Below, in pieces: positions 1 to 54,200 of a stretch of DNA of 64,000 bases. Made by a program: the position numbers and the translations under genes. Within the stretch, counting starts at the first letter, position 1. Each line of letters begins with the position of its first letter. The stretch comes from Anaerolineae bacterium (lineage in GTDB: Bacteria > Chloroflexota > Anaerolineae > B4-G1 > SLSP01). Where the stretch lies: assembly GCA_016931315.1 (NCBI GenBank), contig JAFGFB010000292.1:14699-78698 (forward strand), written 5' to 3'. The notes under the pieces are model-generated. The model saw nothing but the letters and a program-made list of their open reading frames with translations. It searched no databases and was not told the origin of the DNA.

Positions 1-3000
1 CCACCCGGTCACCACGAGTGAGCCCTACGACACGGTAGCCTTGTTTTCCCAAGTAACGCCGGAAGAGGGTAATGACGCCCGCATCATCATCCACGGTCAA
101 CACCAGGCGGCCCTTAGATTCCTCCACATCCGTACGAGAGGTGGTGCGCGATAGCTTCGCGCCAGGCGAAGACTCCTCAGCAGGCGGTTCGGGCGGGGGC
201 CCGGCAATGGGCAAGCGCACAAAGAAGGTGGAACCGGCTCCCAGTTCACTTTCAAACCAGATGGTTCCGCCGTGCGCCTCAACGAATTTCTTGCTGACCG
301 GCAAGCCCAAGCCAGTACCGCCATAGCGCCGCGAGGACGAGGAATCCACTTGTTCGAAAGCGGCGAAGACTGAACCATAACGCTCTTTAGGAATGCCCAC
401 ACCTGAGTCTTGTACCGAAATCGTCACCGCCTCATCGTCCGCCGATGCCGCCAGGGCAATAAAGCCCTGTTCGGTGAACTTTGAGGCATTTCCCATCAAG
501 TTGAGTAACACCTGACGGATGCGCCGTGAGTCCGCAATAATCGTTGGCAGAGTTTCGGGAACATGTTGCTGCAACTCGATGGGTTTGTCCTTAACCAGCG
601 CAATCGAGGTGGACATGATGCCCCGGATGATTTCCATGAGGTCGGTGGGCTCAAAAGCGTATTCCATCTTGCCGGCTTCAATCTTAGAGTGGTCAAGGAT
701 TTCGTTAATCAACTCCAACAAGTGGCGCCCGCTCTGATAGATAGCATCCAGGTCGGTCTTTTGCAAGTCAGTAATGGGACCATCAATTCCCTTGAGAATC
801 ACACGCGAGAAACCGATGATGGAGTTCAAAGGCGTGCGCAACTCATGCGACATATTCGCCAGGAACTCGCTTTTCAACCGGTCAACTTCTTTGAGCTTTT
901 CGGCAGTTTCTTGCGCATCCTGATACAATTGCGCATTTTCCAACGCCACGCCGATGTTGACCGCAGCGTTATGGAAGAAAGCGGTTTCGTTCTCGTCAAT
1001 CGCCGGATGATTGTGTTGCTGTCCCAGAATCAGAACTCCTAAAACCTCATCGCGAATCGTGACGGGCAACACCAAAGCCTCTTCAAGATCCAACTCGGCA
1101 CGGTATACCTCGAAAGGGCTCCATAGCCCCGCAGTAGTAGAGAACTTCCAGCGATAATCCAACCGCGATACCACAGCCTCCGTCAACTCAGGCACATCCT
1201 CGGGCACAAAGCGCTCTTCAGTTTCCTCCAGGAACACCGCAGAGCCATCAAAACGATAGACGGCGAGCGGCCTAATCCTTTCTCGATCAACCTTCCAGTA
1301 AAGCGTCGGCATACCCAGTCGCTGAGCGATCAGTTGAACGCTATCATGCACCAGGTTGTCAGGATCAAGGCTGGCAGATGCGGTGCTCATCACTTCGTTG
1401 AGCAAGGCGCGCCGCTCCGCTTCCTGGCGGGTTGTTTCGAGCAGGAACTGGTTTTCCAGCGCAACCGAGGTATTTTGAGACAAGGTTGTATAAAACCGCA
1501 ATTCCTCAGTTGTGAACTCGTGAGGCTGATGGGTGTAGATCAGGATGGCGCCATAGGGCATCCCGCGGACACGCAGTTGGAAAGCCGCCAGCCCCCGAAC
1601 CGTCAGGTGACGGAACATCCGCCTGACTTCCCCGCTAAACCCTGCTTCCTGTTCAATATCCGTGCAAACATAGGAGCCTTCAGATTCCAATGCAGCGTAA
1701 ATCAATTGCCAGTAGGAAAGCGGATAGGCGCTGCCAGCCTGAACAACCTGACCCTCACGGACCCATCCATCTACAATGCGCAAGTGTGCCGGATCATTCA
1801 GCGGTTCAAATAATCCAGCAATGATGCGATCAGGTTCGGGACGGCGGCTGATACCCTCAATCGCTGCCCGCAAGATCTCCGCATCGCTGTGCGCCTCGCT
1901 GATTTGCTGTCCCACTTCGTACAATGTGGTCGTCTCGGTCAGGACCGAAGTTGTCTGCTCAAACAACAAGCGGTTTTCCAAAGCCATGCCAATCTGCTCT
2001 CGCACAGCCTGGATCAAAGCCAGGTCATCTTCGGACCACTCTTGCCCCAAGACGCTGTGGCTGGATACAGCCCCGGTTTCAGCGGCATTGCTGCCGTTCG
2101 ACGAGGTAGCGGCATCTACGCCCAGAACACCTAGCGGTTCGCCCAAAGGTGAGGTAATAGGCGCCAGGACAAATGCACCATGCTCATCTTGCTGCAATAC
2201 CACCTCACCCCGGGCAAGCTCGCCGATGGCCGCAGTCTCACGCTCCTGCCAGACCTGCCCCACATTCTCAGATATGGCGTCATGGCTGACGGCGTCATTC
2301 ATGACGGTGGCATCCTGCCGTTCGTCATTCATGACGGCGGTAGCAGTTTCCAACAACGGGACCAAACGGTTGGACTCATAGGCATAGCCGACAACAGTAT
2401 GACCACGAGCGAATTTAGACCAGGCTGCACCGGTAAGGTCGCGCTGAATCCGTTGCAGTTCTTCGAAACGCGCCTGAGCCTCAGCAAAGAGCCAGGCATT
2501 GGCAATGGCGTTGGCGATTTGGTCAGCCACCGTTTGTAGCACCAAAATATCGCTATCGGAGAAAGCTTGCGGCTGTCGCGATTGAATGGTAAGCGCTCCA
2601 ATCACATCGCCACGTGAAATCAACGGCAAGGCAATCTCGGAGCGCGTTTCCGGCAACAGTGGATTCTCGAAACGCACTGCCTCAAGCCCCACGTCGAATG
2701 CGATGCGAGCCTCACGGTCTTGCATAGCCGCGCCCACCATCGAATTTCCGCCGATCTGCAAGCGGTGTTCAGCCTGCAACATTTGTTCGCCGGCTGTTCC
2801 AGTTCCAGCACGCAACACCGCCCACTTGCCGGTATCATCTATCAGGAAGACTCCCACGTAATAGACCCCGAATTGCTCACGGATAAGTTCTACCGTCCGG
2901 GGCAGCAATTCCTCCAGTTGAAGCATCGAAGATGTGGCGCGGGAGATATCGGCTGCAGTCTGCAATTGCTGCGTACGATGCTCCAAAGTCGCCAACAGTT

Positions 3001-6000
3001 GTTTACGCGAGGTCATATCGTTAAACACGCCCACGACACCGGTAATCGTGCCCTGAGCGTCGAAGACCGTAGATTTGCTCAAGAGAACGGTATGCGCGGA
3101 GCCATCTGCGTAGGGTATTTGCGCCTCGAAGGATTGCACGCCCGGCTCATGGATAAGACGCATATCGGAGTCATGTTGGGCTTGCGCCACCGCTGGGTCA
3201 ATGGGTGACACGTCACCGGGTGACGCGTCACCCGGTGACGCACCTACCTCAGGCAGCAATTGACGCGCCAATGATTGGCGCGCCAATTCGGGCATAGTCT
3301 GCCCCAAAATTTGCTCGACCGGCAAACCGAGCACTTGTTCAGCGAAAGCTTGGTTTACAATCCGGTGCGCCCCAGTGCGGTCTTTGTAAAACACGGGGTT
3401 GGGAATGGAGTTGATGACGGATTGAAGCAGGATCTGGTTGGATTCGGCGTCCAGCGCGGCATGTCGCGCCCGAGAAAACAGGCGGGCATTGACAATGGCC
3501 GTGGCGAACTGGTCAGCCATGGTCTGCAAGAGAAGAATATCATCCGCGCTAAAAGCCCGGGGGTGCTCCGACTGAATGGTCATGGCCCCGATGGCCTCGT
3601 CGCGTGAGACCAGGGGCAGCGCCATTTCTGACCTGGTGGCGGGCAAAAGCGGATTTTCAAAGCGTACAGCCTCCGCGCCAACATCGAGGGCAATCCGCGC
3701 CTGACGCGAGGCGACACAGGCGCCAATCATGGATTGCCCCCCCACCCGCAAGCGGTGCCCAGAAGCCAACATGTGTTGACCAGCCTCGCCCGTACCGGCG
3801 CGCAGAACAGCCCATTCTCCAGTGTCATCAACCAGGAAGACGCCCACATAGTAGAGTTCGAAACGTTCGCGAATGAGGGCAACGCTTTGCAGAAGGAGCT
3901 CATCCAACTCCAGAATGGAATGGGTGGCGCGTGAAATCTCGGCGCCGGCGCCCAGCAAAAGCGTTCGGCGCTGGGCAGCCTGGAATAATTGCGCGTTGGC
4001 GATGGCGGCAGCAGCCTGATTCACCATAGCGACTAACAAATCCAAATCACTCGCGGTAAAATCAGGCTCCTCGGGCAAATTGATGGCGGTCAGCGTTCCG
4101 ATAACCGCGCCACGGTACATCACCGGCGCCACTATCATGGCGCCACAGTGATGCTCTAAACGATGGCGCTGGGATTCAGCGGATTCGCGGGAATCAGGCT
4201 TGCCCTTGGGAGATAGAGCAGGCTGTACCTCACGCGCGACCCAACCGCTCAAACCCTCCCAGAGGGTCTCAAAGGATATAGCAGGGTCCAAATATGCCTG
4301 CCCCGGACCGCCGCGCGCAAAGTGGGTGATTTGCCGCGCCTCAGCATCGAAGGTGACGAGCGAGACACGGTTAGCCGGCAAGGTCTCCGCCACGCGCGCA
4401 GTAATCTCACGCAGCGCCTCATCCAGGTCCTGGGTGAGCATGACGGAACGCCCGACTTGATAGAGAGCTTGCGTGCGCCTGAGGGATTGCTCAACATCCG
4501 CGAAAAGTTGCGCGTTGGCGACAGCGGCCGCGGCCTGGGTGGCCATAGCCACCATGAGGTCTACATCGTCAGGGGAAAAATCGGGCGCATCCAGACTATT
4601 GAAGGCCGTCATGGTTCCGATGAGTTGGCCACGGTACTGAAGCGGCGCCACAATAATCGCCCCAGTCCGGTTGCGCCGGCGGCGTTCTTGAGCCGCGGAA
4701 CCTTCCCGTGGGTCCACAAAGCCCTTGGGGGAGTACGCGGGTTGCAGGTTTTGGATGACCCAACCGCTCAAACCCTGCTGCAATTCTGCAAAGGAAGGCG
4801 GGCTGTACCCAGCCTGGCGGCTCTCGCGACGCAAACGTCCACCCCACACCGCGTGAGTGATTTCTTCAGTGGTAAAGTTGAAGGTATAGACAATGACCTG
4901 ATCGGCATTGAGCGCCTCAGCCACACCATTCACTACGGTCTGAAGCGTTTCTTCAAGGCTGAGGATAGAGGTCACCGAGCGATTAGCGCGATACAAAGCT
5001 TCGGTGCGCGCCAGGGTCTGACGGGTCTGGCTAAAGAGCTGGGCATTTTGAATAAATACAATGACTTGACTCGCCAACAGCTGCCCGAGGTATTGGTCAT
5101 AAGCCGAAAATGTGCGTTCTTCACGGTCATCCGTTGCTGCCAGGACACCTATGACTTGATCCTGCCACAACAAGGGAATCGCCATAGCGGCTCTAAAAGG
5201 GGCGTCTGTAAATTCCGTAGGGCGTCCCTCCCATTGAGAATAATCGTTGCGCACTTTGAGCTGTTTGGCAGCATAAGCCTGCCCTACCAAGCCTTCACCT
5301 GGAGCGGCACGCGCACCCACTTTAGCGGCATAGCCGCTCTGAAGCGACATGACGAGTTCCAGGCATTGCTCGGCTTCACGCCAGAGCCAGATTCCGCCTC
5401 CTGTGGTATCCAACAAGCGCAGAATGCGACTGCCCACACTTTCAAGCATCGGTTGCAGGTCACGTTGCTGCCGCGCCAGCTCGAGGGAAATCTCATACAT
5501 GGAACTCATCGCCTGATACCGTTGCTGCAGCAGCTCGTAATCTTTTTCAAGGCCCTGGTAGACCGTGTTGGCTTCCAGTGCATCGCTAACCCGCGTCGCT
5601 AACAAATCCATGAGCAATAGACCAAGAGGAGAGAATCCACTCTCCTCACGAGAATATTCACTCTCCTCACCCAAATGCACGGCACAAATCAGAGCTGCCA
5701 ATTGCCCTTCAGCCATTACAGGCGCCAGCAATGCAACCCGGGAGTCTGCTGGCAAGTGCAAGTCTGCCACACAGTCAGCCAGCCGCGTCCCATGCAAGAC
5801 CAGAGGGTGCTCGGAAATACCACAACGTGACAACACCTGCACCGTCAATGGCGCCAGGTCGTGCAGCGCCATACCCACCGCAGCGCATGGCTGCAAGTGG
5901 GAAGCCATAACGCCAGCGGCGCTGGGTACAGCGGCGCTGGGTACAGCGTTGGAACCCGGGTCAATTGTAAAGAACAGCGCCACTGGGCAAGAAAGCAGCT

Positions 6001-6142
6001 TCGTTGCCAGTGCCACAACTTGCTCACCCAATTGCAAGCGCCCTAATACGTGAAACGAAGATCGAGAGAGCGCAGCAATGCCCTCACCTAAAGCGCCTGG
6101 GTGATGCATCACCCATTCAAGTTCCCGTGCCTCAGCATTCAT
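1..6142 (-). CDS. hybrid sensor histidine kinase: multi-GAF + PAS + HisKA + HATPase_c + receiver (3' end runs off the left edge)
   Basis: Absent from the ORF track because no stop lies in the window. My reverse-strand translation from ATG 6142 (MNAEARELEW...) stays open to base 1, and no track ORF shares this frame. Two canonical GAFs (ELYYVGVFLVDDTGEWAVLRAGTGEAG; GVYYVGVFLIDDTGKWAVLRAGTGTAG). PAS-like NPVFYKDRTG...GVFNDMTSRK. Intact H-box FLANMSHELRTPLNSIIGF, N-box LLNLMGNASKFT, G-boxes DSGVGI and GGTGLGL, then receiver start LVLTVDDDAGVITLFRRYL. Confidence 0.9.
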   Translation of the reverse strand, partial: MNAEARELEWVMHHPGALGEGIAALSRSSFHVLGRLQLGEQVVALATKLLSCPVALFFTIDPGSNAVPSAAVPSAAGVMASHLQPCAAVGMALHDLAPLTVQVLSRCGISEHPLVLHGTRLADCVADLHLPADSRVALLAPVMAEGQLAALICAVHLGEESEYSREESGFSPLGLLLMDLLATRVSDALEANTVYQGLEKDYELLQQRYQAMSSMYEISLELARQQRDLQPMLESVGSRILRLLDTTGGGIWLWREAEQCLELVMSLQSGYAAKVGARAAPGEGLVGQAYAAKQLKVRNDYSQWEGRPTEFTDAPFRAAMAIPLLWQDQVIGVLAATDDREERTFSAYDQYLGQLLASQVIVFIQNAQLFSQTRQTLARTEALYRANRSVTSILSLEETLQTVVNGVAEALNADQVIVYTFNFTTEEITHAVWGGRLRRESRQAGYSPPSFAELQQGLSGWVIQNLQPAYSPKGFVDPREGSAAQERRRRNRTGAIIVAPLQYRGQLIGTMTAFNSLDAPDFSPDDVDLMVAMATQAAAAVANAQLFADVEQSLRRTQALYQVGRSVMLTQDLDEALREITARVAETLPANRVSLVTFDAEARQITHFARGGPGQAYLDPAISFETLWEGLSGWVAREVQPALSPKGKPDSRESAESQRHRLEHHCGAMIVAPVMYRGAVIGTLTAINLPEEPDFTASDLDLLVAMVNQAAAAIANAQLFQAAQRRTLLLGAGAEISRATHSILELDELLLQSVALIRERFELYYVGVFLVDDTGEWAVLRAGTGEAGQHMLASGHRLRVGGQSMIGACVASRQARIALDVGAEAVRFENPLLPATRSEMALPLVSRDEAIGAMTIQSEHPRAFSADDILLLQTMADQFATAIVNARLFSRARHAALDAESNQILLQSVINSIPNPVFYKDRTGAHRIVNQAFAEQVLGLPVEQILGQTMPELARQSLARQLLPEVGASPGDASPGDVSPIDPAVAQAQHDSDMRLIHEPGVQSFEAQIPYADGSAHTVLLSKSTVFDAQGTITGVVGVFNDMTSRKQLLATLEHRTQQLQTAADISRATSSMLQLEELLPRTVELIREQFGVYYVGVFLIDDTGKWAVLRAGTGTAGEQMLQAEHRLQIGGNSMVGAAMQDREARIAFDVGLEAVRFENPLLPETRSEIALPLISRGDVIGALTIQSRQPQAFSDSDILVLQTVADQIANAIANAWLFAEAQARFEELQRIQRDLTGAAWSKFARGHTVVGYAYESNRLVPLLETATAVMNDERQDATVMNDAVSHDAISENVGQVWQERETAAIGELARGEVVLQQDEHGAFVLAPITSPLGEPLGVLGVDAATSSNGSNAAETGAVSSHSVLGQEWSEDDLALIQAVREQIGMALENRLLFEQTTSVLTETTTLYEVGQQISEAHSDAEILRAAIEGISRRPEPDRIIAGLFEPLNDPAHLRIVDGWVREGQVVQAGSAYPLSYWQLIYAALESEGSYVCTDIEQEAGFSGEVRRMFRHLTVRGLAAFQLRVRGMPYGAILIYTHQPHEFTTEELRFYTTLSQNTSVALENQFLLETTRQEAERRALLNEVMSTASASLDPDNLVHDSVQLIAQRLGMPTLYWKVDRERIRPLAVYRFDGSAVFLEETEERFVPEDVPELTEAVVSRLDYRWKFSTTAGLWSPFEVYRAELDLEEALVLPVTIRDEVLGVLILGQQHNHPAIDENETAFFHNAAVNIGVALENAQLYQDAQETAEKLKEVDRLKSEFLANMSHELRTPLNSIIGFSRVILKGIDGPITDLQKTDLDAIYQSGRHLLELINEILDHSKIEAGKMEYAFEPTDLMEIIRGIMSTSIALVKDKPIELQQHVPETLPTIIADSRRIRQVLLNLMGNASKFTEQGFIALAASADDEAVTISVQDSGVGIPKERYGSVFAAFEQVDSSSSRRYGGTGLGLPVSKKFVEAHGGTIWFESELGAGSTFFVRLPIAGPPPEPPAEESSPGAKLSRTTSRTDVEESKGRLVLTVDDDAGVITLFRRYLGKQGYRVVGLTRGDRV
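3204..3245. repeat. three tandem copies of the palindromic element GGTGACGCGTCACC
   Basis: ggtgacacgtcacc gggtgacgcgtcaccc ggtgacgcacc. The middle copy is a perfect 16-nt palindrome. It is read in frame on the minus strand as GASPGDASPGDVSP inside the PAS-like segment of the hybrid kinase. Confidence 0.85.
5916..5948. repeat. 15-nt tandem repeat (2.2 units) inside the hybrid kinase
   Basis: gcggcgctgggtaca occurs twice, followed by gcg. It encodes AVPSAAVPSAA on the minus strand. Confidence 0.85.
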
Positions 6143-6177
6143 ACCCTGTTTCTCCCGCTCTCCAAATAAGTCAGGCC

Positions 6178-9100
6178 CTATTCCTCTGTGTCTGCCGCAG
6201 ATTCATGATCTGCTTCCGCATAGGATTGCGGCGACAATTCGCCCGTAGGTTTCTTGCGTCGGGCAGCGCCAACGCCGCCCAAACGCACTACCGCTCTCGA
6301 TGTTCCCAAAGCCCGTCCCAGCTCGCGAGCGGCAGTCTGCAGAACGCTCTGAACATCTGGGGCGGCCTGAATCTGGTCACCAATCTCACGAATCAGTTGT
6401 TCACGGCGAGCGCGTGAAGCTGTCGCTTCCAACTGATAGATGTTCTGGATAGCAACAGCAGCCTGGCCAGTCAAAGTGGTCAACCGGCGTTGCTCTTCTT
6501 CCGTAAGGTGGGTGACCGTGCCATAAGCAGCCATGAAGGTTCCAATAGCCTGTCCACCCACCAGCAAGGGCGTGAAAACCACGGTCCTACCTTGCAATGA
6601 GTTGTGGAAAAGGTCGTAGGCAGGTGCGATTTCATCCACCTCGCGTTCTACATCCGTAATCACCTGGGTGCGGTCGCGTTGCAAGTAAGGTTCGAGTAGG
6701 GCGAGTGTGTTCCCACGCGCCAGCAGCGATAAGTCAATGGGTGACGTTGCCAGGGCGTTGGGTACAACATTGGAGCCTGGCGCTCCCGTAACCCAGCGGG
6801 CTGCCAACATAGCGTTGGTAGGACGTTGACGCTCGGTCCAAGGGCGGTCGTAGAGGAGGATGGCATTGACATGCGCGCTGCCACCCAAGGCAGTGTATTG
6901 ACGCATTACGTCGAGAATCTGGACATAGGTTTGCGCTGCATTGAGGGACCCGCCAGCCTCGTACAGGACCTCGGTCTCAGCCAGGGCGGTTTGCACTTCG
7001 CGGAAGAGTCGTTCGCGCGCGAGGGTGCTCGAGAGTGCCGCGGCGACGGTCTGCACGGAGATGAGCTCCTCCGGCTTCCAATCCCGCTCCCGCAGGTTGT
7101 CACCAAAAGCCAAAAAGTTGGGGGCGCTGGCATCGCTCGGTACGGCAATCAATAACAGTGAACGGAAGTCGAGGGCTTCAAGCGCTTGTTGCTCCGCAGC
7201 ACTGGCGCGACTCGCATCCACGCGCACGAGGCCGTGGCTTCGTAGTGCGGGCAACCACTCGGGGAAGCTATCCAGGCGCCATTTGGAGGCAGCGGGGCTC
7301 TCGTTGGCGGCGGTGGGGGTCCAGTGGGCGCCGACCTCCCAATACATGCCGGCGCCCTCGGAACGTAAATCGCAATACTGCGCGGCGCCAGTCTCCAGGA
7401 CCTCGCCCAAGAGCTGCAGCACCGTGGGCATGGACTCAGTCCCGCGCTCAGCCAGCTGCGCGGTGGCTTGTGCGACGGCGTCACGGTAACGGGATTGAAT
7501 CTCAACCACACCGAGCGTCTGCTGAAGTTGAGCGAACTGCAGCGCATTCTGGGCTGAAGTAGCCAGCTGCGATCCCAGGAACTCCAGAAGGCGGACGTTC
7601 TCTTCAGTAAAATACCCTGCCGTGGTGCTGTTGGCAAACAACACGCCCACGATCTCCGCGCCCAAACGCAACGGCACGGCGACTTGGGCGACCAGGCCCA
7701 AATCCACCAACGGGGAGGCAATGCGCGAATCGGCGGCAAGCTGGTTGATGAGCACCGGGCGCCCAGTGGCACGGACCTCGGCGGTTACGCCATCGGGACG
7801 CGGCGGGGTCAAAGTTTCGGGTGCGGCAAAGCGAGGGTCTGCGGCTGAAAAGCCAGAGAAGGCGGCATGCATGTCGGCTAAGGCGTTGTTCCGCTCCCAG
7901 AAAAAGACCCGAGTGCGTTGCACGCCCAGCAGCCGCATCGCCCATTCAGCGCCGGTATTGAGCACCGCCTCGACTTCGCGCATGCCAATCATACTGAGGC
8001 CAGCCTCGTACAATTGTTGGAGGTCGCGCGCACGCCGAGCGCTTTCCTGATAGAGGCGGGCATTTTCTAGTGCCACGGTTGCCTGTGCGGCGAAAAGTTC
8101 AGCTAAGCGGCTCGCCACCGCATCAAACGGCAAAGCGCCCCGTTGCCGGGCGACGAGCAATACGCCAATGACGCCGCGCGCAGCCATCAAGGGGACCGCC
8201 AGGGCAGGACCCAGGACCGGGGCGGCAGGGTTGCCGGGGGTATGGATGCCGGTTGTATAGGCTTCAGTCTGCACGACGCGCCGCTCCAAGAGTGCCGTAC
8301 CCGGTAAGCCCTCGCCCGGGTTGAAGGAGATTCCCTGATAGGACGCCAGGTCGCCCCAAACGCTCAGACAGTGAAGTGCGGCTTGAGGTTCACTATAACG
8401 CAAGAAGGCGGCCCCATCAGCAACCAACAGTGCTTGAGCCTGGTCTACCACCAGTTGTTCTGTCGCCTCAGGGTCTAGGACTTGCCCAAAGCGCAACGAC
8501 ACTTCATAGAGCAGTTGCAGCTCGGCCGAGCGACGCTGAGTTTCCTCAAGCAAGTGCAGGTTTTCCAGCACCACAGCCACCTGCCCCGCCAGGTTGCGCG
8601 CCAGGGTACGGGTATCGGGGTCTAGCAATACGTCTTGCTGCTGGCGAATCAACGCCAGGAATCCGGCTTGAGCCGTTGCCGTGCGGATAGGGACGTAAAG
8701 AACACGTTCCAGGTCATAATTCTCGGTCAGGGTCTGAACTTCGCCCATGGGCAAAATCTTCCCCAGTTCCGGTTCAGTCAAGCCGTGGAAGAAAATCTGT
8801 AAATCCGCGGGCAGGGTGTAGATAATGCCGGGATCGAGGAGTTTCTCGCCCCCGGGGAGCACAAAGGCTTGTAAACGCACTTCTTGGGATGCGGCAATTG
8901 CCGAAGTAGTCCCAGGGGCGCCGGTCGGGGCACCGCGGAAAGTAAATACCCCAACCGCCATGGCAAGCCCGCGCGCCAGGATTCCGGCAATTTCCTCCAA
9001 AGCCTGGTCCGGGTCAAGGGTCATGGCGGCAGTCTGCAAGACGGCGTTGAGCAGGGCTTGTTGGCGCGCGGTGCGCTGGGTCTCCTCAAAAAGGCGCGCG

Positions 9101-10728: not shown

Positions 10729-10758
10729 AGGCCATTCTCCTTCATCAAAGTCCCGGAT

Positions 10759-10819
10759 GGGCGGGCGGACACGCAGGCGGACACGCAGGCGGACACGCAG
10801 GCGGACACGCAGGTCCGCC
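10759..10819. repeat. expanded REP-like element: GGGCGG + (gcggacacgcag) x4 + GTCCGCC
   Basis: gggcgggcggacacgcaggcggacacgcaggcggacacgcaggcggacacgcaggtccgcc. This is the left arm plus loop of the GGGCGGAC-acgcag-GTCCGCCC hairpin, repeated four times with a 12-nt period. Confidence 0.9.
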
Positions 10820-10820
10820 A

Positions 10821-11966: not shown

Positions 11967-12004
11967 TGTTAACCTCCAGTCTTTGCGCCATTTATGGCGG
12001 CGGC
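11911..12004. repeat. pair of identical 22-nt direct repeats straddling the S15/lipoprotein junction
   Basis: ttgcgccatttatggcggcggc occurs at 11911-11932 and 11983-12004. The two genes read it in different frames (RRHKWRK versus AAAINGAK). Confidence 0.9.
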
Positions 12005-15699: not shown

Positions 15700-15700
15700 T

Positions 15701-23689: not shown

Positions 23690-23727
23690 GGACGCTCTCC
23701 TAAGAGTTGACTCAACTCACGCATCTC

Positions 23728-26046: not shown

Positions 26047-26070
26047 TCAATTCCTCCATCGGTGGTTGGA

Positions 26071-26099
26071 CCGCCGGTCATGCCGCCGGTCATGCCGCC
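26071..26099. repeat. 12-nt tandem repeat (2.4 units) spanning the S9 stop and the S9/S10 spacer
   Basis: ccgccggtcatg occurs twice, followed by ccgcc. It shares the ccgccggtc core with the S10 tail repeat at 23773-23813. Confidence 0.85.
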
Positions 26100-30279: not shown

Positions 30280-30293
30280 GGATCATCTCCTTC

Positions 30294-30317
30294 GGCAATC
30301 TTGTCGGCAAGATTGCC
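30294..30317 (-). other. intercistronic hairpin directly upstream of the S8 ribosome-binding site
   Basis: ggcaatctt gtcggc aagattgcc has a 9-bp perfect stem and a 6-nt loop. On the minus strand GAAGGAGATGATCC-ATG of S8 follows immediately. There is no U-run. Confidence 0.5.
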
Positions 30318-30335
30318 GCATTGCGCTCTGTGTAA

Positions 30336-32237: not shown

Positions 32238-32250
32238 GGTCGTACCCCCA

Positions 32251-32297
32251 GTTGGGCGGACACCAGGTCCGCCGGGCGGACACCAGGTCTGCCCCTA
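32251..32297. repeat. two tandem REP-like hairpin elements in the S7-upstream spacer
   Basis: gttgggcggacaccaggtccgcc gggcggacaccaggtctgcccctac. This is the only fully intergenic copy of the family in the window. It lies between the SBP stop (32298) and the S7 start (32237). Confidence 0.85.
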
Positions 32298-33314: not shown

Positions 33315-33426
33315 TTCCACTCCTCCACCCACACTATAGGTAATTGTCATTCCAACGTTAACTACTTCACAGAGCTTTCAAACTCGCCACTACCGTCCGG
33401 CAAACCGGCTTCAAGACCACTATTCG

Positions 33427-36675: not shown

Positions 36676-36685
36676 ACACCCACCC

Positions 36686-42962: not shown

Positions 42963-44698
42963 TGATCTTCCTCCACAGACTCCACCGGTGGCAATGGTCC
43001 CGTTCCAGGGGGTTTACCGGCTTGTTGCGCTGGCGAGGTTAACGCTAGCACCACCTCATTCGCATCAAGTGCGGTGCCGATTTCTCGCACACCATGGCGT
43101 AGTATCGTTTCCACATCGAAACTAGACCAAATCAAATCTCCCACATGCGCAAGCTGCTCCTGATAGAGCGCCTTGCGACGGCTATCGCGCAGAAGGCGAA
43201 CTGTATCGAAAGCCCCGGCCAGGCGCTCAACAGCAGTCGTGGCCAGAAGTAAAGCTTCAGTCTCCCACGGAGCTGCCTGCTCGCCCGGAAGCGTCCCGCT
43301 CGCCTGGCGCGTAAAAGCCACATAGCCCAAATTGGTTTCGCGCCAGGTAAGCGGCGTTAATAGTAACCATCCCCCCACACCACCCGGCAGCCCCACAACA
43401 TGAGGTTTCCCATCGCGCAACATCTCGGTAGCTAAAAGGTGAATACTCTCAGCCGGCGATTCTCCCACTTGCACCTGATGCGATATTCCCTCAGAACTTA
43501 ACAACGACCGCCATGAGGTACCCGCGACCTGTGCATAAAGCGTGCGCAGCTCTTGCGCTCGTGCCGAAGTTTCCTCGAGCAGGCGCAAAATATTCAAAGC
43601 CGCAGAGACCTGATCGCTCAACACCCGGAAGATGCGCACATCTTCTTCGGCAAAAGGCTTCCGGCTGCCATAAATTCCCAGAACCCCTAGCAGCTCGCCG
43701 CCGAAGATCAAAGGTAAAGCGACCTCCGCGCGGCGCAAGGGGAAGCGCTCATCACCCGCAGGGATTGCAGTCTCAGCCGTCCCAAGTTGCGCCACCCGTC
43801 CCGGCAATGATTCACCGCCCACAGCCAACGACCAACCAGCATCCACCAGAGCTTGACCCTGCGCACCGGCAGCAGCCGCCAGGTTCAGTTGCTCCCCGCG
43901 CACATCGAGCAGGAAAACATTAGCCTGGTACAATCCGAAAGCACTCACAAGTTCTTCAACCAAACGGTGCAATAGACCATCGCGGTCGCGCATTCGCGCC
44001 AGGTTACGCGAGAGCATAGCCACACGGTCAATGCGATCAGCCTGCCTGCGTGCCCGTTGCGCCTCTTCTTGTGACTGAAGCCGGAGTTTCTGCGCCACGT
44101 CGGCGTTGCTCTGTAACTCCTCAATGGATTTTGATAAAAATTTCCGGTACTCGCTAATCGTCAACCCTAGAACCAGAATGACCGTGATGGGTACGAAAGC
44201 CTCAATCGCCCATGATCCCAAATCCAGAGGATTCTGAGCCTGCAACGGGACCAGACGGCCTTGCGCATATCCCCAAGCCACTAACGCATAGCCACCCAAG
44301 GCTAAGGCGCTCCAAAGCCACAAGCCGCGTCGCCCCAATAACAAAGTTGCCAGTAATGGCACCAGCAACAGCCAGAAACGACCTGCCCCCACCAATCCAT
44401 TTTGCGCTAAAATATACAACCCGCTACCCAAAGCAATCAGCAAAAAACCGCTAATACGCACCACTGGGGACCAGGTTTTGACAAAGGCTAGAACCAGGAA
44501 GAAACCATATAAACCCAGGAAGATCACAATCTGCCAATACAGAGCACGGCTAATCGCGGTTGGGATCCAAAACAACAACAATAACATGCCCGCAACGACC
44601 GAAAATGCCAGCAAGCGCGCGAGCAACCAATCGCGAAACTGCATTTCCTGGTGGGAAAGGTTCTCACCATGTGGAGAAGTCACATCATGAGGATTCAT
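42959..44698 (-). CDS. S2: polytopic-membrane GAF sensor protein with no recognisable output domain
   Basis: ATG 44698 has GGAGTGA upstream and overlaps S1 by 14 nt. About 6 TM helices. GAF FGLYQANVFLLDVRGEQLNL...AEVALPLIFGGELLGVLGIYGS. Second module (TSWRSLLSSEGISHQ...LLLTPLTWRETNLGYVAFTRQ). Stub QEQLAHVGDLIWSSFDVETILRHGVREIGTALDANEVVLAL. Confidence 0.85.
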   Translation of the reverse strand: MNPHDVTSPHGENLSHQEMQFRDWLLARLLAFSVVAGMLLLLFWIPTAISRALYWQIVIFLGLYGFFLVLAFVKTWSPVVRISGFLLIALGSGLYILAQNGLVGAGRFWLLLVPLLATLLLGRRGLWLWSALALGGYALVAWGYAQGRLVPLQAQNPLDLGSWAIEAFVPITVILVLGLTISEYRKFLSKSIEELQSNADVAQKLRLQSQEEAQRARRQADRIDRVAMLSRNLARMRDRDGLLHRLVEELVSAFGLYQANVFLLDVRGEQLNLAAAAGAQGQALVDAGWSLAVGGESLPGRVAQLGTAETAIPAGDERFPLRRAEVALPLIFGGELLGVLGIYGSRKPFAEEDVRIFRVLSDQVSAALNILRLLEETSARAQELRTLYAQVAGTSWRSLLSSEGISHQVQVGESPAESIHLLATEMLRDGKPHVVGLPGGVGGWLLLTPLTWRETNLGYVAFTRQASGTLPGEQAAPWETEALLLATTAVERLAGAFDTVRLLRDSRRKALYQEQLAHVGDLIWSSFDVETILRHGVREIGTALDANEVVLALTSPAQQAGKPPGTGPLPPVESVEEDQ

Positions 44699-46682
44699 AA
44701 TTCACTCCTTCTCCCGAGGGCGCTAACGGAGTCAGGCTCACGAGCACACCATCCGCATCCACCAACGTCTGTAACGCACTCGCCGCGCTCGAAGCCAACA
44801 GCTGCAGGTCAAAGATATCCGCCAATTGATCGGAGAAACCGCGCAACTGCTGTTCCATTTCCACCCGGCGGCGTGCGCTACGCATCAGCTGCAAACGCTG
44901 GAGCGCAGCCCCAGAAAACTCCATTAACAAGCCAAACAGAGTCTCTTCTGCAGCGGTGAATCCATGCAAGGTATGGAAAACAATTCCCAGTATGCCCATC
45001 AGGTGGCCCTCGGCATGGAATGGCACTAATGCCAAACTGCGTAAGGAACCGCGTACAGCGAGTTGCCTCAATGACTCCCACTCGGCGCCGTCTAAAGACG
45101 CGCCCACAAACGTCAACGGAGGGTTCGCCACATCGGGGATAAGTAAGGGCTGCTGCGCTCGCAAAACAGCCGGAATCAGCGCCTCTTCAGCAAACCAATG
45201 TGCCATGGAATGCTGCAAGTCAGGGAAACGCAGGCGCTCGCCACGCAGCTCCGCCACTAACGTCGCCCGCCCAGCCGCCCGCTCCGACTGCCCAGGCGCC
45301 TGCTCCAGCCGCCCAGCCTCTTCAGCAAGGGTCATAATGAAAGCGCGTTGCGGAGAATACTCCCGAACCGAGTCAAGAATGGCGGTATAGACCTCCTGGT
45401 CGGTCCAGGCTTTTGCGAAACGCTGCGCCAGGCGATAGAGCGGACTGGTAGCTTCAAGCAGAGCCGCTTCTTCATTCACGCGGCGGGCATTCATAAGTGC
45501 TACTGCCAATTGCCTTGCCGAAAGTTCCAGCACACGGAGGTCATCCGCATCAAAAGCTTCATCCTCCAGACTTTGCAGATCCAACACACCCAAAATCTGA
45601 TCCTCATACAGCAATGGCAGAAGTGCCGCGGAGCGCGCCTCACGCAAACGCCAGAGATCTTGAGGATCCTTGGGGGTCAGAATCTGGGGCTGCCGCTTCT
45701 GCCACACACGCCCAACCATCGTCTCACTCACAGGGACCCGAAAACCTTCCTGCAAGCGCTGCTGACCCGCCTCAGATGTGGCAGCGTGCAAAACCAGCAT
45801 TGCGCCATCAGGACGCTCTTCGGGCAAGTAGAGACCTACATGATGCAAGTCGAAAATCCTCGCAAAAGCCTGCACAGCACGGCTCAGCAACGGCGTGAGA
45901 GCCAACAGTGAGCCAGTCTCAGCGCTAAAGGCAGCCGTGCCCTCCAACAAGAACACCCGTCGCTGTAGCGAGGTATTTACCTGTTGGATGCTCCGTGCGC
46001 GTGTGTCTACCTCCGCCTGTTGCGCCTCCAGCACGGCAATACGTTGACGGCTTTCTGCCACGGCAGCGAGAAACCGGGGCACAAGATAACGCTGCACAAT
46101 GATTAACATGGTACTCAGCAACGCCAGGGATACGGTATCACTCACCAGAGATACCGGCGCAACCCCAATCAAAAAAGGCTCGGTGAGCGGTGGCAATTCC
46201 AGCACACCGGTTACACCGAGCATACCCACAGTCAAAATGGTCAACATGGAGAGCCCCAAAGCCAAAAAGCCTTGGTACACACCGTAAAACAGTGAGGTCA
46301 ACAAAGAGAGTGAGAGAAAGAAAAGCCGCGCATCTTCCTTCCAACCAAAAACCAAAAGATCAGCCAGGCCCATGAGATACAGGAGCGCCAAGACACCTGA
46401 GACTTGGATGGTATAGGGCACTTTGCGCCAGAAGGTAAAGACCAGCACCACCAAATATGCCAAAGCATAACCCATCACCAATGCGATGTGTCCGCGCAGA
46501 TAAGCGCCATAGGCGCTAAAAGCGAGAGCGAACGGACCGGCAATCACCACGGCGAGCAGAAGACCGTGCACTAGCTGCGTGCGCCAAAGCTGCGCTTCGC
46601 GCAAAGCCGCATCCGCAGTCGGCAAATGCGCGCCCGCCCAATCATCACGAAGCCATGATTTCAGCTGTCCCCAAATCTGCAT
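44685..46682 (-). CDS. S1: polytopic-membrane GAF sensor protein with no recognisable output domain
   Basis: ATG 46682 has GAGGAGG upstream. About 7 TM helices. GAF FDLHHVGLYLPEERPDGAMLVLHAATSEAGQQRLQEGFRV...AALLPLLYEDQILGVLDLQS, then a second GAF-like region. Divergent stub MEQQLRGFSDQLADIFDLQLLASSAASALQTLVDADGVLVSL. Confidence 0.85.
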   Translation of the reverse strand: MQIWGQLKSWLRDDWAGAHLPTADAALREAQLWRTQLVHGLLLAVVIAGPFALAFSAYGAYLRGHIALVMGYALAYLVVLVFTFWRKVPYTIQVSGVLALLYLMGLADLLVFGWKEDARLFFLSLSLLTSLFYGVYQGFLALGLSMLTILTVGMLGVTGVLELPPLTEPFLIGVAPVSLVSDTVSLALLSTMLIIVQRYLVPRFLAAVAESRQRIAVLEAQQAEVDTRARSIQQVNTSLQRRVFLLEGTAAFSAETGSLLALTPLLSRAVQAFARIFDLHHVGLYLPEERPDGAMLVLHAATSEAGQQRLQEGFRVPVSETMVGRVWQKRQPQILTPKDPQDLWRLREARSAALLPLLYEDQILGVLDLQSLEDEAFDADDLRVLELSARQLAVALMNARRVNEEAALLEATSPLYRLAQRFAKAWTDQEVYTAILDSVREYSPQRAFIMTLAEEAGRLEQAPGQSERAAGRATLVAELRGERLRFPDLQHSMAHWFAEEALIPAVLRAQQPLLIPDVANPPLTFVGASLDGAEWESLRQLAVRGSLRSLALVPFHAEGHLMGILGIVFHTLHGFTAAEETLFGLLMEFSGAALQRLQLMRSARRRVEMEQQLRGFSDQLADIFDLQLLASSAASALQTLVDADGVLVSLTPLAPSGEGVNYESS

Positions 46683-46792
46683 TTGGCCTCCTCAACACCC
46701 CCAAGCCTCAATCGCCCCCGGGCGTAGGTCTACACCCCACCGCCCTCAATTCCAAGCACCTGAGCACACGACGTTATAAATCAGATTCTCTT

Positions 46793-46815
46793 GTCAGGTA
46801 TAAACCGTCAGGTAT
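46793..46815 (-). promoter_or_regulatory. direct repeat ATACCTGAC x2 immediately after the kinase stop (function unknown)
   Basis: The minus strand reads TGATACCTGACGGTTTATACCTGACAAG. It sits in the only gap over 120 nt inside the signalling gene train (46683-46814). I could not fit a convincing -35/-10 pair. Confidence 0.3.
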
Positions 46816-49280
46816 CAACCTTCTTTGGTGCTGGCAATGGGAATAGAGAAAGTGAAGGTGCTTCCCTTTCCCAAATCACTATCTAACCAGAGCTGCCCGC
46901 CATGCAGCTCGACAAACTCCTTGCACAATGCCAGACCCACACCTACCCCAGATGGCGCCCCATCCGAAGGCGCAGCCTCAACAGAGCCATCCACACAACT
47001 CTCCCATTCCCGAAACGGCAGTCGCTCCGGCGGGCACACTTTCTCAAAACCGGCTAAAATTCGCTCACGATCTTTCGGATCAATCCCCACACCCGTATCC
47101 CGCACACTCACATACGCCATTTCATCATCAGACCACGCGCGGATGGCGATTTCACCCCGCTCCGTGAATTTAGCGGCATTGGTCAGCAAGTTAATCAACA
47201 CCTGCCGAATACGATCAGGGTCGCCCTGAACGGAGGCCAGGTCTTGTGCAATATCCTGTGTCAACTGCACATCCTTACCTCGAACCAAAGCGCTGGCTGT
47301 CGGCAGTACACTTGTGATCACATCCCGCAAATTCACCACCTGAGATTTCAAATCCAGTAACCCCGCCTGGATCTCCGAAATCGCCAGGATATCATTGATC
47401 AAATCCAAAAGATGTTCACTGTTACCATGAATCCGCTGCACGTCAGCTGCTTGCTCTTCAGAAAGCGGGCCATCAAAACCCTTGAGCATCAGCCGCGAAA
47501 AGCCCAAAATGGAATTCAAAGGCCCCCGCAGTTCCTGCGACATATTCGCCAAAAAGCGCGCCTTGAAGGCCTCATTATCCTCAAATTGCTGCGCCGCCTG
47601 TCGTTCACGCTCATACGCACGAGCATTTACCAAAGCAATCGCCACCTGATTTGCCAAATGCTCCAACACCTTAACGTCATCCACCTGCAAGCCTTCATGC
47701 TCCGCGCTACGAACCGCCAGCACCCCCAATGCCTGCTGTTCCATGCGCATCGGTATCCCCACATGGGATAGAATTCGGCGATACCATTCAGGTACCTCTT
47801 CATCCAATAGCTCATTGATAACCTGAGAGTTGCCTTTGCGCAGGGCTTTCCCCACCACAGTGCCATCACCTGTAACCGCCACTTGGGGCCAGGAGGCAGC
47901 TTCCGGGCTAGCCGCATGCAGCCGCGCCTCAGCGCCGCCAGGATTCACCAGATACACCGCCACAGCAACGTAGGAGAAGCGCTCCCGAATACGCTCCGCT
48001 ACCCGCTCCAATAAAGCTTCCGGGTCGCGAATGGACGTGACTGCCTGACTGACTTCCAGGCTCGCTTCCAATTGAATCGCACGGCGCTGAATCTGGTAAT
48101 TAGCCTTCTGTAACAACTGCGTACGCGCAACGACTTTGGCCTCCAGGTCTTCATACAGCGATTTTAACTCGCCCGCCATCTGATTAAAGACGTAGGTAAG
48201 AATGCCAATTTCGTCCCGAGAGACCACGGGGACATGCTGCTCCATATTGCCTTCCGCCATTTCCAACGCCGATTCGGTCAGTCGAATCACAGGTCGGGTA
48301 ATCTGGCGGATCACGAATGCGGAAATCACCGTAGTAAGCAACGCTACGGAGAGCAAGCCCCCTATCAAGGTAGCGGCGATGAGCTCAGTGGACGCCAAAA
48401 CCTCCCGTTGTTCCTGCTCAACCAATATTCCAACATCCAACTCCGAAAGTGGGAAATAGGCCCCCACAACGGGAGTGCTTGTTGCATTACTGTACCAGGC
48501 GCTTGAGGGACTCTGGTCTGCCAGCGTCATACAGGCGCCCTTTGGCAATACCGATGAAGTGCTTTGAGAATCAGCCGTCAGCCAGACCCGTCCGTCGCGA
48601 ACCAGGTAAACGTTTGGTCCAGTATTCCCCATCATCAAATCATGTTGCAGGTTCTGCATCAACACCACAGGATCAAAACACAGCACCAAAGTCTCGGCAT
48701 CAGCGACGCCGGGGAAAACAATGGGAACGGAGGATGGTGCAGCAGCCGAGACGCTAGCTGCGCGCGTTTCCGCTAAAGGCTGCTCACAAGGCAAAGTCGC
48801 CTGTGGCGCCGGCAACGCACACTCCCCCCAAACCTGCTGTGACCTTCCCCGCAACCAGACGACACCATGCAATTCAGGAATCTTACCCTGCACCGCAACC
48901 CAAAGAGCGCCCTCATCTGCATCTTCAGCTAGCGCCGCTGCTTCCGGAATCGCTTCAACCACCGCACGGAACAGGTCAGCGCGATCCAACAACCAGGATT
49001 CCAAATTTTCGGCTTTTAAGGTCGCCATCAGTTGCAGTTTACTCGTGGCTTCAACCTGCAAGTTGCTACGATTCTGCACCACAACATACCATCCAATTAA
49101 AGCAAAAGGCATGATGGTCAGCGCCAAAAAAGCCGTCAGGAGCGTACGCCCCAGCCCGCCGCGCATACCCGTAGTTGGCAGGGTTCGCGCATTGGCTGAA
49201 GCAGCTGCCGCCTGAGATGGTAACGCCGTCGAAGGCGGGGATGCTTGCGGCGACCTTAACGCCTTTACTCCGGTTCCCAT
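46815..49280 (-). CDS. sensor histidine-kinase homolog (TM + periplasmic + HAMP + GAF + HisKA + HATPase_c) with Gln in place of the H-box His
   Basis: H-box region FLANMSQELRGPLNSILGF; the Gln codon CAG is at 47535-47537. The hybrid kinase has FLANMSHELRTPLNSIIGF. N-box LINLLTNAAKFT, G1 RDTGVGI, and G2 GVGVGLALCKEFV after an insertion of ~30 aa. HAMP VFNQMAGELKSL. The start is uncertain: ATG 49280 is only 2 nt after GGAGG, and the alternative is ATG 49166. Confidence 0.88.
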   Translation of the reverse strand: MGTGVKALRSPQASPPSTALPSQAAAASANARTLPTTGMRGGLGRTLLTAFLALTIMPFALIGWYVVVQNRSNLQVEATSKLQLMATLKAENLESWLLDRADLFRAVVEAIPEAAALAEDADEGALWVAVQGKIPELHGVVWLRGRSQQVWGECALPAPQATLPCEQPLAETRAASVSAAAPSSVPIVFPGVADAETLVLCFDPVVLMQNLQHDLMMGNTGPNVYLVRDGRVWLTADSQSTSSVLPKGACMTLADQSPSSAWYSNATSTPVVGAYFPLSELDVGILVEQEQREVLASTELIAATLIGGLLSVALLTTVISAFVIRQITRPVIRLTESALEMAEGNMEQHVPVVSRDEIGILTYVFNQMAGELKSLYEDLEAKVVARTQLLQKANYQIQRRAIQLEASLEVSQAVTSIRDPEALLERVAERIRERFSYVAVAVYLVNPGGAEARLHAASPEAASWPQVAVTGDGTVVGKALRKGNSQVINELLDEEVPEWYRRILSHVGIPMRMEQQALGVLAVRSAEHEGLQVDDVKVLEHLANQVAIALVNARAYERERQAAQQFEDNEAFKARFLANMSQELRGPLNSILGFSRLMLKGFDGPLSEEQAADVQRIHGNSEHLLDLINDILAISEIQAGLLDLKSQVVNLRDVITSVLPTASALVRGKDVQLTQDIAQDLASVQGDPDRIRQVLINLLTNAAKFTERGEIAIRAWSDDEMAYVSVRDTGVGIDPKDRERILAGFEKVCPPERLPFREWESCVDGSVEAAPSDGAPSGVGVGLALCKEFVELHGGQLWLDSDLGKGSTFTFSIPIASTKEG

Positions 49281-49684
49281 ACCTCCTCGCCCGCAAGAAT
49301 GCGGCGAATCTGTTCAGGAAAACGATCGGGATCCAAAGGTTTACCAATAAAGCCGTCAAAACCCACCTGGCGTGCCCGTTCCACAAAAGGCTGAGCGATG
49401 TTGGCAGTTACCGCAACAATCGGCACATCCTTGATTTGCGGATGCGAGCGCAAAGACTCCAACGATTCAAAGCCATCCGCATCGGGGAGCATCAAATCCA
49501 TCAAAATGAGGTCAATTTCGCCCAGCGTCTCCGCAAATTCCAGCACCTTCCACCCAGAAGCTTTCCATTCGCATTTTTTGACCCCCAGGAAAGCCAATAA
49601 ACGCGTCATCAACAAGAAATTGTTAAAATTGTCCTCGACAATGAGAATCACCGCATCCCAAGGTTGTTTTGGCTTAGCCTTCAT
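49265..49684 (-). CDS. single-domain response regulator (CheY-like receiver)
   Basis: VILIVEDNFNNFLL...IDLILMDLMLPDADG...VPIVAVTANI...GFIGKPLD. The acidic pocket, phospho-acceptor Asp, Thr and Lys are all present. There is no output domain. ATG 49684 (the track uses GTG 49687) overlaps both neighbours. Confidence 0.9.
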   Translation of the reverse strand: MKAKPKQPWDAVILIVEDNFNNFLLMTRLLAFLGVKKCEWKASGWKVLEFAETLGEIDLILMDLMLPDADGFESLESLRSHPQIKDVPIVAVTANIAQPFVERARQVGFDGFIGKPLDPDRFPEQIRRILAGEEVWEPE

Positions 49685-50060
49685 CACGTCCCCCCCGTTG
49701 CAAAAAGCGCGCTACCTGCTCTGGCAACAAATCCACATCAATCGGCTTGGGAATATAGCCATCACAACCGGCTTCGATGCTCTTCTCACGATCGCCGTGC
49801 ATCACATTCGCCGTCATTGCCACAATGGGTATATTGCGCAACTCGGGAATATCACGCAAACGCCGCGTTAGCGTATAGCCATCCATCTCGGGCAAGTTCA
49901 TATCCATGAGGATCAAATCGGGGAGCTCACGCTGGGCCGCAGCAATTCCCTGGGCAGCATCAAAAGCTTCCACCACGATATAACCTTCTACCATCAAAAT
50001 GCGGCGCACCAGCAGCCGATTATCCGGATTGTCTTCCACATACAAAATCTTCGCGCCCAT
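49674..50060 (-). CDS. single-domain response regulator (CheY-like receiver), first gene of the train
   Basis: KILYVEDNPDNRLLV...PDLILMDMNLPEMDG...IPIVAMTANV...GYIPKPID. All receiver signature residues are present. GAGGGA lies 7 nt upstream of ATG 50060. Confidence 0.92.
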   Translation of the reverse strand: MGAKILYVEDNPDNRLLVRRILMVEGYIVVEAFDAAQGIAAAQRELPDLILMDMNLPEMDGYTLTRRLRDIPELRNIPIVAMTANVMHGDREKSIEAGCDGYIPKPIDVDLLPEQVARFLQRGGRDEG

Positions 50061-50130: not shown

Positions 50131-50228
50131 CGGAAAGCACCATAAAATACCATAACTATTGTGTTAAAAGCGTGTGACACTTACCAAAAACCGATTCCAA
50201 GACGGTTTGAATCTGAAATCTGCCCTTT

Positions 50229-50269: not shown

Positions 50270-50289
50270 ACTTCTTCTGAGAGCAGCCC

Positions 50290-54160: not shown

Positions 54161-54200
54161 AAAACACTCCTTTGATATGCACACGATAATAAAGACACCA

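Follow-up and report, generated by a model that had tools for sequence, protein, structure and literature searches.

A train of GAF-domain receptor-like proteins with a conserved C-terminal module, encoded between two-component genes in Anaerolineae

We describe a 64,000-nt stretch of DNA from an uncultured Anaerolineae bacterium (the window, in what follows), in which 22 genes, all on the minus strand, run from position 50060 down to base 1. Sixteen of these genes, S1 to S16, encode GAF-domain proteins that begin with different input modules and end in the same conserved module, and they are framed by genes of two-component signaling. The train is best explained as one member of a signaling supercluster conserved in Anaerolineae and Thermoflexales. 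What the sixteen proteins do together is a more tentative matter, and we weigh several possibilities below.

The genes of the train

Using an open reading frame (ORF) listing, translation and Pfam, we reproduce the 22-gene minus-strand train that an earlier note on this sequence had described. In the order of transcription it reads REC1, REC2, HKQ, S1 to S6, SBP, S7 to S15, LIPO, S16 and HHK. No long plus-strand ORF in the train region matches Pfam, in keeping with the claim that there is no plus-strand gene.

The 5′ end carries two single-domain response regulators, REC1 (49674..50060, 128 aa, Pfam Response_reg 94 bits) and REC2 (49265..49687, 140 aa, 73 bits). Neither has any other domain, and the acidic pocket, the acceptor Asp, the Thr and the Lys are legible in both sequences. 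Next comes HKQ (46815..49280), a membrane HAMP-GAF-HisKA-HATPase kinase by Pfam, whose H-box is FLANMSQELRGP, with a Gln at the phospho-acceptor position instead of the His. HKQ keeps its N, G1 and G2 boxes yet lacks the His by which a classical two-component kinase is recognized. At the other end lies HHK (2..6142), a hybrid histidine kinase with at least 7 GAFs, a PAS, a HisKA (66 bits), a HATPase_c (95 bits) and an intact H-box, SHELRTP. It is cut by the edge of the window, where its receiver begins, and we judged its end beyond base 1 from the 85% orthologs in two related loci (L068 and L069), which are 2164 aa long and comprise histidine kinase and receiver. By classical features, then, HHK is a two-component kinase, and REC1 and REC2 are receivers with their acceptor Asp. 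The two CheY-like proteins, the kinase with Gln for His and the intact multi-GAF hybrid kinase of the earlier note are all borne out.

The interior of the array also holds two solute-binding lipoproteins. SBP (32298..33350) is NMT1/THI5-like (Pfam NMT1, 174 bits), with a signal sequence and a lipobox. LIPO (10821..11966) has an ABC_sub_bind-like binding fold, with a PF04392 match of 26.7 bits that is barely over the cutoff, and a lipobox LGGC.

The sixteen S genes differ in how they start. For each one we give below the coordinates of the gene, and then those of the terminal stub (a helix-strand element described in the next section) with its score, where coordinates and bits refer to matches to a 59-position HMM of the S protein end. 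S1 (44685..46682) has a MASE11 membrane input followed by two GAFs (stub 44730-44906, 56 bits), while S2 (42959..44698) has MASE11, a GAF and a short GAF (43037-43213, 76 bits). The next two have transmembrane (TM) inputs followed by HAMP, GAF_2 and a short GAF: S3 (40944..42962) with a TM sensor (41037-41213, 82 bits), and S4 (38032..40947) with multiple TM segments and dCache (38101-38274, 81 bits). S5 (36686..38035), at 449 aa, is the minimal member, with just two cytoplasmic GAFs (36806-36982, 67 bits). S6 (33427..36741, likely start 36675) carries Peripla_BP, a LacI-type binding fold, then GAFs, GAF_2 and a short GAF (33490-33666, 81 bits).

Downstream of SBP, S7 (30336..32237) has a 4HB-like TM input, HAMP, GAF_2 and short GAF (30375-30551, 80 bits), and S8 (27841..30279) has Cache3-Cache2 ahead of the same three domains (27871-28047, 81 bits). 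S9 (26090..27844), the protein modeled below, has a MASE11-like membrane input, GAF_2 and short GAF (26150-26323, 80 bits). Both S10 (23728..26046; 23821-23994, 77 bits) and S11 (21368..23689; 21422-21598, 71 bits) have an ABC_sub_bind-like periplasmic domain, a TM segment, GAF_2 and short GAF. S12 (19836..21371) has a six-TM input and a short GAF (19932-20105, 74 bits), and S13 (15701..19903, likely start 19843) is cytoplasmic, with seven GAFs and a PAS (15716-15889, 65 bits). S14 (13867..15741, likely start 15699; 13900-14073, 70 bits) and S15 (11969..13867; 12068-12241, 71 bits) share a layout of multi-TM input, GAF and short GAF. Finally, S16 (6178..10821) has a TM sensor, HAMP, GAF_2 and several short and full GAFs (6277-6453, 77 bits).

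All 16 ORFs are intact. Hydrophobic membrane segments are found in 13 of the 16 proteins, and the other three (S5, S6 and S13) look cytoplasmic. The Pfam domains found in S1 to S16 are MASE11, HAMP, dCache, Cache3-Cache2, Peripla_BP, ABC_sub_bind, PAS and GAF, and every one of the sixteen has GAF matches above the cutoffs. We find no HisKA, HATPase, GGDEF, EAL, HD, cyclase, PP2C, STAS or HTH domain in them by Pfam (E ≤0.01 for HisKA and HATPase_c). The earlier note had proposed such an HMM search as a check on the lack of output domains, and no transmitter or effector domain matched. Its estimate of about 40 kb of S coding DNA compares with a total of 38,184 nt for the S genes.

A common C-terminal module

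The last ~110 residues align across all 16 S proteins, with the motif ...L.vPL.VR.q.iGvL...W..EE..Ll......QL..ALEsARLYe.tQrrA.RERL.gE...R.R..lDVE.VL.tA..EL...LG...a.VRL, after which only 4-40 residues remain, rich in Glu, Asp, Gly and Pro. When the S proteins are compared with one another, the last 110 residues are alike in 99 of the 120 pairs and the inputs in 16 of 120, which agrees with the earlier description of a shared C-terminal core behind differing inputs. The stub HMM scores 56-82 bits at every S C-terminus, and at most 34 bits at the internal GAF-GAF junctions of S13, S16 and HHK.

In a profile search of the PDB, the stub aligns to residues ~10-55 of cyanobacteriochrome-type GAFs (2lb5, 6ozb, 8k9o, 6uv8, 3oov), and in 6oap and 8w26 to junctions of the GAF-GAF and GAF-PHY kind. 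Because these are the starts and junctions of GAF domains, we read the S C-terminus as follows: one GAF closes with its last helix, a linker helix comes next, and another GAF then begins but gets no further than helix alpha1 and strand beta1 before the protein stops. Upstream of the stub, most S proteins have a short GAF-like domain, and ahead of that stands one conserved GAF_2 subtype (198-242 bits to the family HMM), of which HHK has 2 copies. The GAF_2 of S9 contains no Cys at all, and so no bilin-binding Cys of the cyanobacteriochrome or phytochrome kind.

We propose to define the family by the motif ALESARLY...RERL...LDVE..VL...VRL followed by an acidic tail of no more than 60 residues (median 13). 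This ending is found in all 16 S proteins, in 397 genes from 66 loci, and in 552 proteins overall. Thus, to speak of sensors without transmitters, or of output-less sensors, as the earlier note did, is misleading. The S proteins share a strongly conserved terminal module, and that module is the obvious candidate for a transmitter.

The tails that follow the stub in the 552 stub-ending proteins have a median of 13 aa, are rich in Glu, Asp, Gly and Pro, and are net negative in 78% of cases; no fixed terminal motif after the stub is found among them.

We considered two other accounts of this ending and rejected both. One is a split GAF, in which the stub would complete a partner GAF without alpha1-beta1; there is no acceptor for it, the GAFs of HKQ and HHK being N-terminally complete. 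The other is a simple circular permutation, which fails as a universal explanation in that a full GAF precedes the stub in S1, S5 and S16.

The same type of ending is also met in a different class of proteins. Giants of 1,400-3,900 residues, with up to 21 GAF-like repeats and without known output, in many cases end in an S-type tail (P0016-P0165), and in many of them the best tail match stops 5-20 residues short of the C-terminus. A profile search of the 16 tails against 1.84 billion representatives returned ~135,000 matches, a number that is made up mostly of giant multi-GAF proteins and is not a family size.

Structure prediction and couplings

We modeled residues 236-584 of S9 with AlphaFold2, using a 109-sequence alignment (pLDDT 82.8). 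The model opens with a canonical GAF of six strands, from which a helix of 52 residues leads to a short GAF of four strands; a second helix, of 38 residues, and a disordered loop then lead on to the stub, which is a helix and a strand. It matches solved GAF structures: the best Foldseek matches are tandem-GAF structures (PDE5A, CyaB2, PDE2A) and phytochrome GAF-PHY, with E-values of 4e-8 to 1e-6. The long helices in the AlphaFold2 models are typical of dimeric signaling spines.

When the short GAF and the stub are modeled separately (pLDDT 80.2, pTM 0.72), the strand of the stub keeps its strand state by DSSP, with a pLDDT near 90. Since the strand state persists in this isolated model, the stub strand, as judged from DSSP states only, must there pair with the sheet of the short GAF, that is, the stub is predicted to fold back. 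This isolated model has no significant match in the PDB (best E 0.09).

In a mean-field direct coupling analysis (DCA) of 520 tails, the stub and the short GAF each show strong internal couplings. There is no clear strand ladder between the two, and the enrichment of couplings between stub and short GAF is weak and mostly to the long helix (stub-alpha5 pairs). DCA thus does not confirm the fold-back, which stands as a prediction, and does not distinguish packing in cis from packing in trans; the stub could equally well swap between two protomers that form a dimer. Some couplings link residues 4-8 positions apart in the stub strand. They could hint that the strand pairs with itself in antiparallel fashion across a dimer, or could equally be artefacts of the alignment edge.

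Conservation across Anaerolineae and Thermoflexales

A scan with the pattern ES[AG][RQ]LY..., taking one genome per species, found 282 relatives, of which we kept 66 loci. Nearly all of these are from Anaerolineae, Thermoflexales or unclassified Chloroflexota metagenome-assembled genomes (MAGs). Strong stub matches there end close to a stop codon: 397 have one within 60 residues (median 13), and 1 match is clearly internal. Within each locus the S genes share one strand, at a density of ~6-10 per 20 kb, and the number of S genes per array goes from 3 to at least 16.

The frame of two-component genes recurs as well. Where 5′ ends are visible, we observe REC-REC-HK (HK for histidine kinase) in L027, L043 and L063, REC-REC in L060, and HK in L038, L045 and L057. 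Visible 3′ ends are GAF hybrid kinases, in L028, L036, L039, L060 and L068-L076, the last group coming from a metagenome scan. The earlier note had named scattering of these genes in related genomes as a finding that would tell against it; on the contrary, they are clustered, and the same frame recurs in dozens of Anaerolineae and Thermoflexales MAGs.

The S paralogs are only 20-45% identical to one another, and the order of S5 to S12 is collinear in relatives, at 58-86% identity. From this collinearity we take the paralogs to be old and individually retained, rather than recent duplicates. The homologs bear no annotation beyond "GAF domain-containing protein" or a similar label, no NCBIfam model covers S-type proteins, and full-text literature searches found no published description of this layout; the earlier note, too, knew of no such system.

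In a single locus, the hybrid kinase and the last S gene have a gene for a ParA/MinD-like ATPase (AAA_31) between them (L060:13438-14199). It brings to mind the positioning of chemoreceptor clusters by ParA-like proteins.

The kinases and their outputs

The tails of S4, S7, S8, S9 and S10 align over 320-385 columns to residues 1060-1447 of HHK, at 33-36% identity, and HHK 752-889 shares 69.6% identity with the S6 copy of GAF_2. By homology, the S tail is thus the same module as the HHK segment that leads, through further short GAFs, into the dimerization domain (DHp), catalytic domain (CA) and receiver. The S proteins stop just past strand beta1 of what continues in HHK as the next domain.

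The earlier note counts a kinase without its phospho-acceptor among the parts of the assembly, but the system is not defined by it. The Gln itself is genuine and stably kept, being found in 5 90%-identity clusters at ≥80% identity to HKQ; orthologs 65-73% identical to HKQ have the His, and so do most of the more distant ones, among which Arg takes its place 12 times and Gly once. Altogether, ~18 of 118 HKQ orthologs (~15%; P0286-P0405) are without the His, and the N, G1 and G2 motifs are kept in all those checked. The ortholog in L027 has a degenerate ATPase domain instead. We thus reject the Gln kinase as a hallmark, and read the loss of the His from these sequences as a recurrent, lineage-specific option, in which the first kinase would be converted to a pseudokinase. 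That the His is repeatedly lost while the ATP-binding motifs are kept suggests that the first kinase can work by contact, in the manner of a pseudokinase.

Nine more distant arrays have a further gene after the hybrid kinase, for a threonine-synthase-like PLP enzyme with a C-terminal receiver (PF00291 + PF00072). We find this PLP-REC gene at L028:16795-18546, L039:18757-20292 and L036:18791-20294, and also in L071-L076. Its best NCBIfam match is the threonine synthase PRK08197, at 255 bits, which is below the model cutoff of 303 bits. In 2 of the 9 arrays, the gene next after PLP-REC is a REC-HisKA-HATPase gene. In L069, the closest relative (85%), the array stops at HHK and unrelated genes follow, so the PLP-REC enzyme is not adjacent in the lineage of the window itself. 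As the output of a response regulator, PLP-REC is unusual.

Transcription and neighboring sequence

Are the 22 genes one transcription unit? Recomputing the 21 junctions with plausible start codons, we agree with the earlier count that 13 of them are overlaps of 1-16 nt or gaps of at most 10 nt; the overlaps account for 9. The largest gap is indeed 132 nt, and it sits between HKQ and S1. A promoter-like site, TTGGTA-17-TATAAT (50093..50121, minus strand), lies in the AT-rich region upstream of REC1, with a second TATAAT nearby. It matches 10 of 12 consensus positions, a consensus match only, and such a site was found solely upstream of REC1. The internal gaps of the train contain no terminators of the hairpin plus T-run type. 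The tight or overlapping junctions, the single promoter-like site and the terminator-free gaps are indirect signs that the 22 genes may be co-transcribed. Strand bias alone is not special to the train, because the 14 kb upstream of it (50290-64000) is likewise entirely on the minus strand.

The upstream boundary of the train is marked by a perfect 20-bp hairpin (50228..50270), which is probably the terminator of the upstream xanthine-dehydrogenase-like operon. The minus-strand genes of 50290-64000 include xanthine-dehydrogenase-like MoCo, 2Fe-2S and FAD subunits and a xanthine/uracil permease, together with a thiolase and ChsH2-like, cyclase, AllG and CoA-ligase-like genes. Such a set suggests purine or allantoin breakdown, unrelated to the train.

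Two other small features are worth reporting. In the gap between S7 and S8 (30280-30335), just before the ribosome-binding site of S8, there is a perfect 11-bp hairpin (GGCAATCTTGCC...GGCAAGATTGCC), with no T-run after it, which may be an RNA-processing or stability element. And a 20-nt palindrome, GGCGGAC-ACGCAG-GTCCGCC, occurs in 5 copies in the window (10800-10819, 16687-16706, 19012-19031, 19871-19890 and 32255-32273), where 0 are expected by chance. Two copies are in intergenic gaps, one is at the S12/S13 junction, and two are within the coding sequence of S13, where they read as ADLRVRP or ADLSVRP. At 10729-10820, 4 tandem half-units of the palindrome create a false N-terminus for the longest S16 ORF. 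That N-terminus is a tandem-repeat artefact in an intergenic gap, and the true start of S16 is probably 10728. The palindrome was not found in any of 147 related loci, an 86% relative included, and because of this absence it looks like a small hairpin element that has spread recently.

A proposed shared receptor array and its alternatives

How would such a set of genes work? The frame combines two kinases, one a membrane HAMP-GAF kinase and the other a giant multi-GAF hybrid, with two single-domain response regulators, and it encloses the receptors. Each receptor is probably a dimer. Its input module is Cache, MASE11, a binding-protein fold, PAS or a bare membrane domain, often with HAMP after it, and its common end is the cytoplasmic GAF_2, short GAF, long helix and helix-strand stub. 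GAF_2, short GAF and stub together would form a transmitter that has no enzymatic activity. Through direct GAF and helix contacts, made in mixed dimers or by packing side by side, it would convey to the shared kinases the ligand state of each receptor, so that one phosphorylation output, to REC1 and REC2, would integrate many inputs. That the S proteins are a co-receptor array of this kind, acting on the shared kinases by protein contact, is the reading we favor, and we would put it somewhat short of an even call.

A more specific version is a GAF-built receptor array, in which the transmitter of up to 16 or more co-expressed receptors docks on the GAF spine of the hybrid kinase and on the often His-less kinase, with a phosphorelay to the CheY-like regulators and, in many lineages, to the PLP-REC enzyme. 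It would be a functional analog of the chemoreceptor arrays or of the stressosome, made from unrelated parts. We propose this version only tentatively. The system can be classed as two-component signaling with accessory receptors, and there is a substantial chance that it is a new type of receptor array.

Several observations weigh against a co-receptor array. Physical contact between S proteins and kinases is only deduced. Both kinases have sensor regions of their own and could work alone, and the GAF of HKQ resembles the S-type GAF_2 only distantly (77 vs. 200-240 bits). On the output side, neither an Hpt domain nor a DNA-binding regulator is encoded in the cluster. In two arrays (L036 and L050), the first S gene detected is not immediately preceded by a two-component gene, and arrays can arise by tandem duplication alone.

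The deduced nature of the contact and the two loci without upstream two-component genes would also suit independent receptors, with their partners elsewhere, or with an output that consists of small-ligand binding by GAF_2. The array would then be a product of tandem duplication, and the adjacency of the kinases only historical. The homology of the tail to an HHK segment fits an origin by duplication and truncation, and the GAF_2 subtype is as highly conserved as one would expect of a shared ligand pocket. However, the REC-REC-HK ... hybrid HK frame persists over divergence at class level even as S genes vary in number, the tight or overlapping junctions suggest co-expression, and paralogs at 20-45% identity with orthologs retained in order are not recent duplicates. 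We consider independent receptors unlikely, if still deserving of attention.

The collinearity of the S tails with HHK 1060-1447 can be turned in another direction. The S proteins, which have no DHp or CA, could be ligand-controlled decoys or anti-kinases, forming mixed dimers with HHK that switch it off or shift it to a phosphatase mode. They end exactly where the next HHK domain starts, and the recurrent loss of the His in HKQ, with the ATP-binding motifs kept, suggests that non-catalytic contact roles do occur. This possibility strikes us as doubtful, and it is a sub-case of the co-receptor array more than an exclusive alternative to it. Most S proteins are membrane-bound and HHK has at most weak hydrophobic segments, which makes a parallel mixed dimer geometrically awkward, and the AlphaFold2 models fold the stub back on the short GAF instead of leaving it free. 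One could also argue, from the stop of the proteins inside a would-be GAF domain and from the loss of the His in the first kinase, that the S genes are histidine-kinase genes in decay, truncated like pseudogenes and deprived of DHp and CA. But every one of the 16 ORFs is intact, orthologs keep their order, the same truncation point is found in 552 proteins from dozens of genomes, and the stub is the best conserved part, with covariation inside it. Because the ending is conserved, gene decay is effectively refuted, and we give it hardly any weight.

Comparison with known systems

Bacterial sensing is usually described as one sensor leading to one pathway. To our knowledge, the exceptions in which many receptors share one kinase are the chemotaxis arrays and the stressosome. 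If the S proteins are indeed a co-receptor array, they would be a third and unrelated solution, widespread in a major and poorly studied phylum, and would enlarge the repertoire of signal integration. They would also define a new non-enzymatic transmitter module, and thousands of "GAF domain-containing protein" entries would gain a name and a testable role. Both the partner kinase, in which the His is repeatedly lost, and the PLP enzyme with its fused receiver point to unusual outputs, contact-based and metabolic.

The likeness to the MCP-CheA-CheW-CheY chemoreceptor arrays is in the varied inputs (Cache, 4HB, PAS, HAMP) joined to one conserved non-enzymatic cytoplasmic module, and in receptor genes that accompany those of a shared kinase and of single-domain response regulators. 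Here, in contrast, the conserved module is GAF-derived and the kinases, HisKA-type sensors, bring their own inputs; MCPsignal, CheW, CheA P1/P5 (Hpt), CheR and CheB have no Pfam match in the 22 train proteins. In the stressosome (RsbR paralogs, RsbS, RsbT), varied-input sensors with a common C-terminal domain co-assemble and control one kinase, and the S proteins, as paralogous sensors with different N-terminal inputs and a common C-terminus, would follow the same logic. The 22 train proteins have no STAS domain and no RsbT-type serine kinase by Pfam, and most S proteins, unlike the stressosome, are membrane proteins.

In the DivL-DivK-CckA system of Caulobacter, a pseudokinase relays the state of a response regulator to a hybrid kinase by contact. 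The train has the same ingredients: a kinase that lacks the His while its ATPase domain is intact, a large hybrid kinase, and response regulators of a single domain. Unlike DivL, which has a Tyr at the acceptor position, we find Gln or Arg here, with the His lost in ~15% of orthologs, and the homology considered is that of the generic kinase core.

The S9 tail, two GAF-like domains joined by long helices, resembles the tandem-GAF modules (PDE2A/PDE5A, CyaB2) and the GAF-PHY of phytochromes. Those tandem-GAF modules regulate a fused catalytic domain, whereas the S proteins have none, and their second domain is shortened to four strands and then followed by the helix-strand stub. Finally, in the staphylococcal NreA-NreB system, a histidine kinase is modulated through contact with NreA, a GAF protein without enzymatic output. 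NreA consists of one soluble GAF and has one partner, whereas here we observe up to 16 multi-domain receptors, mostly membrane-bound, with a distinct tail of their own.

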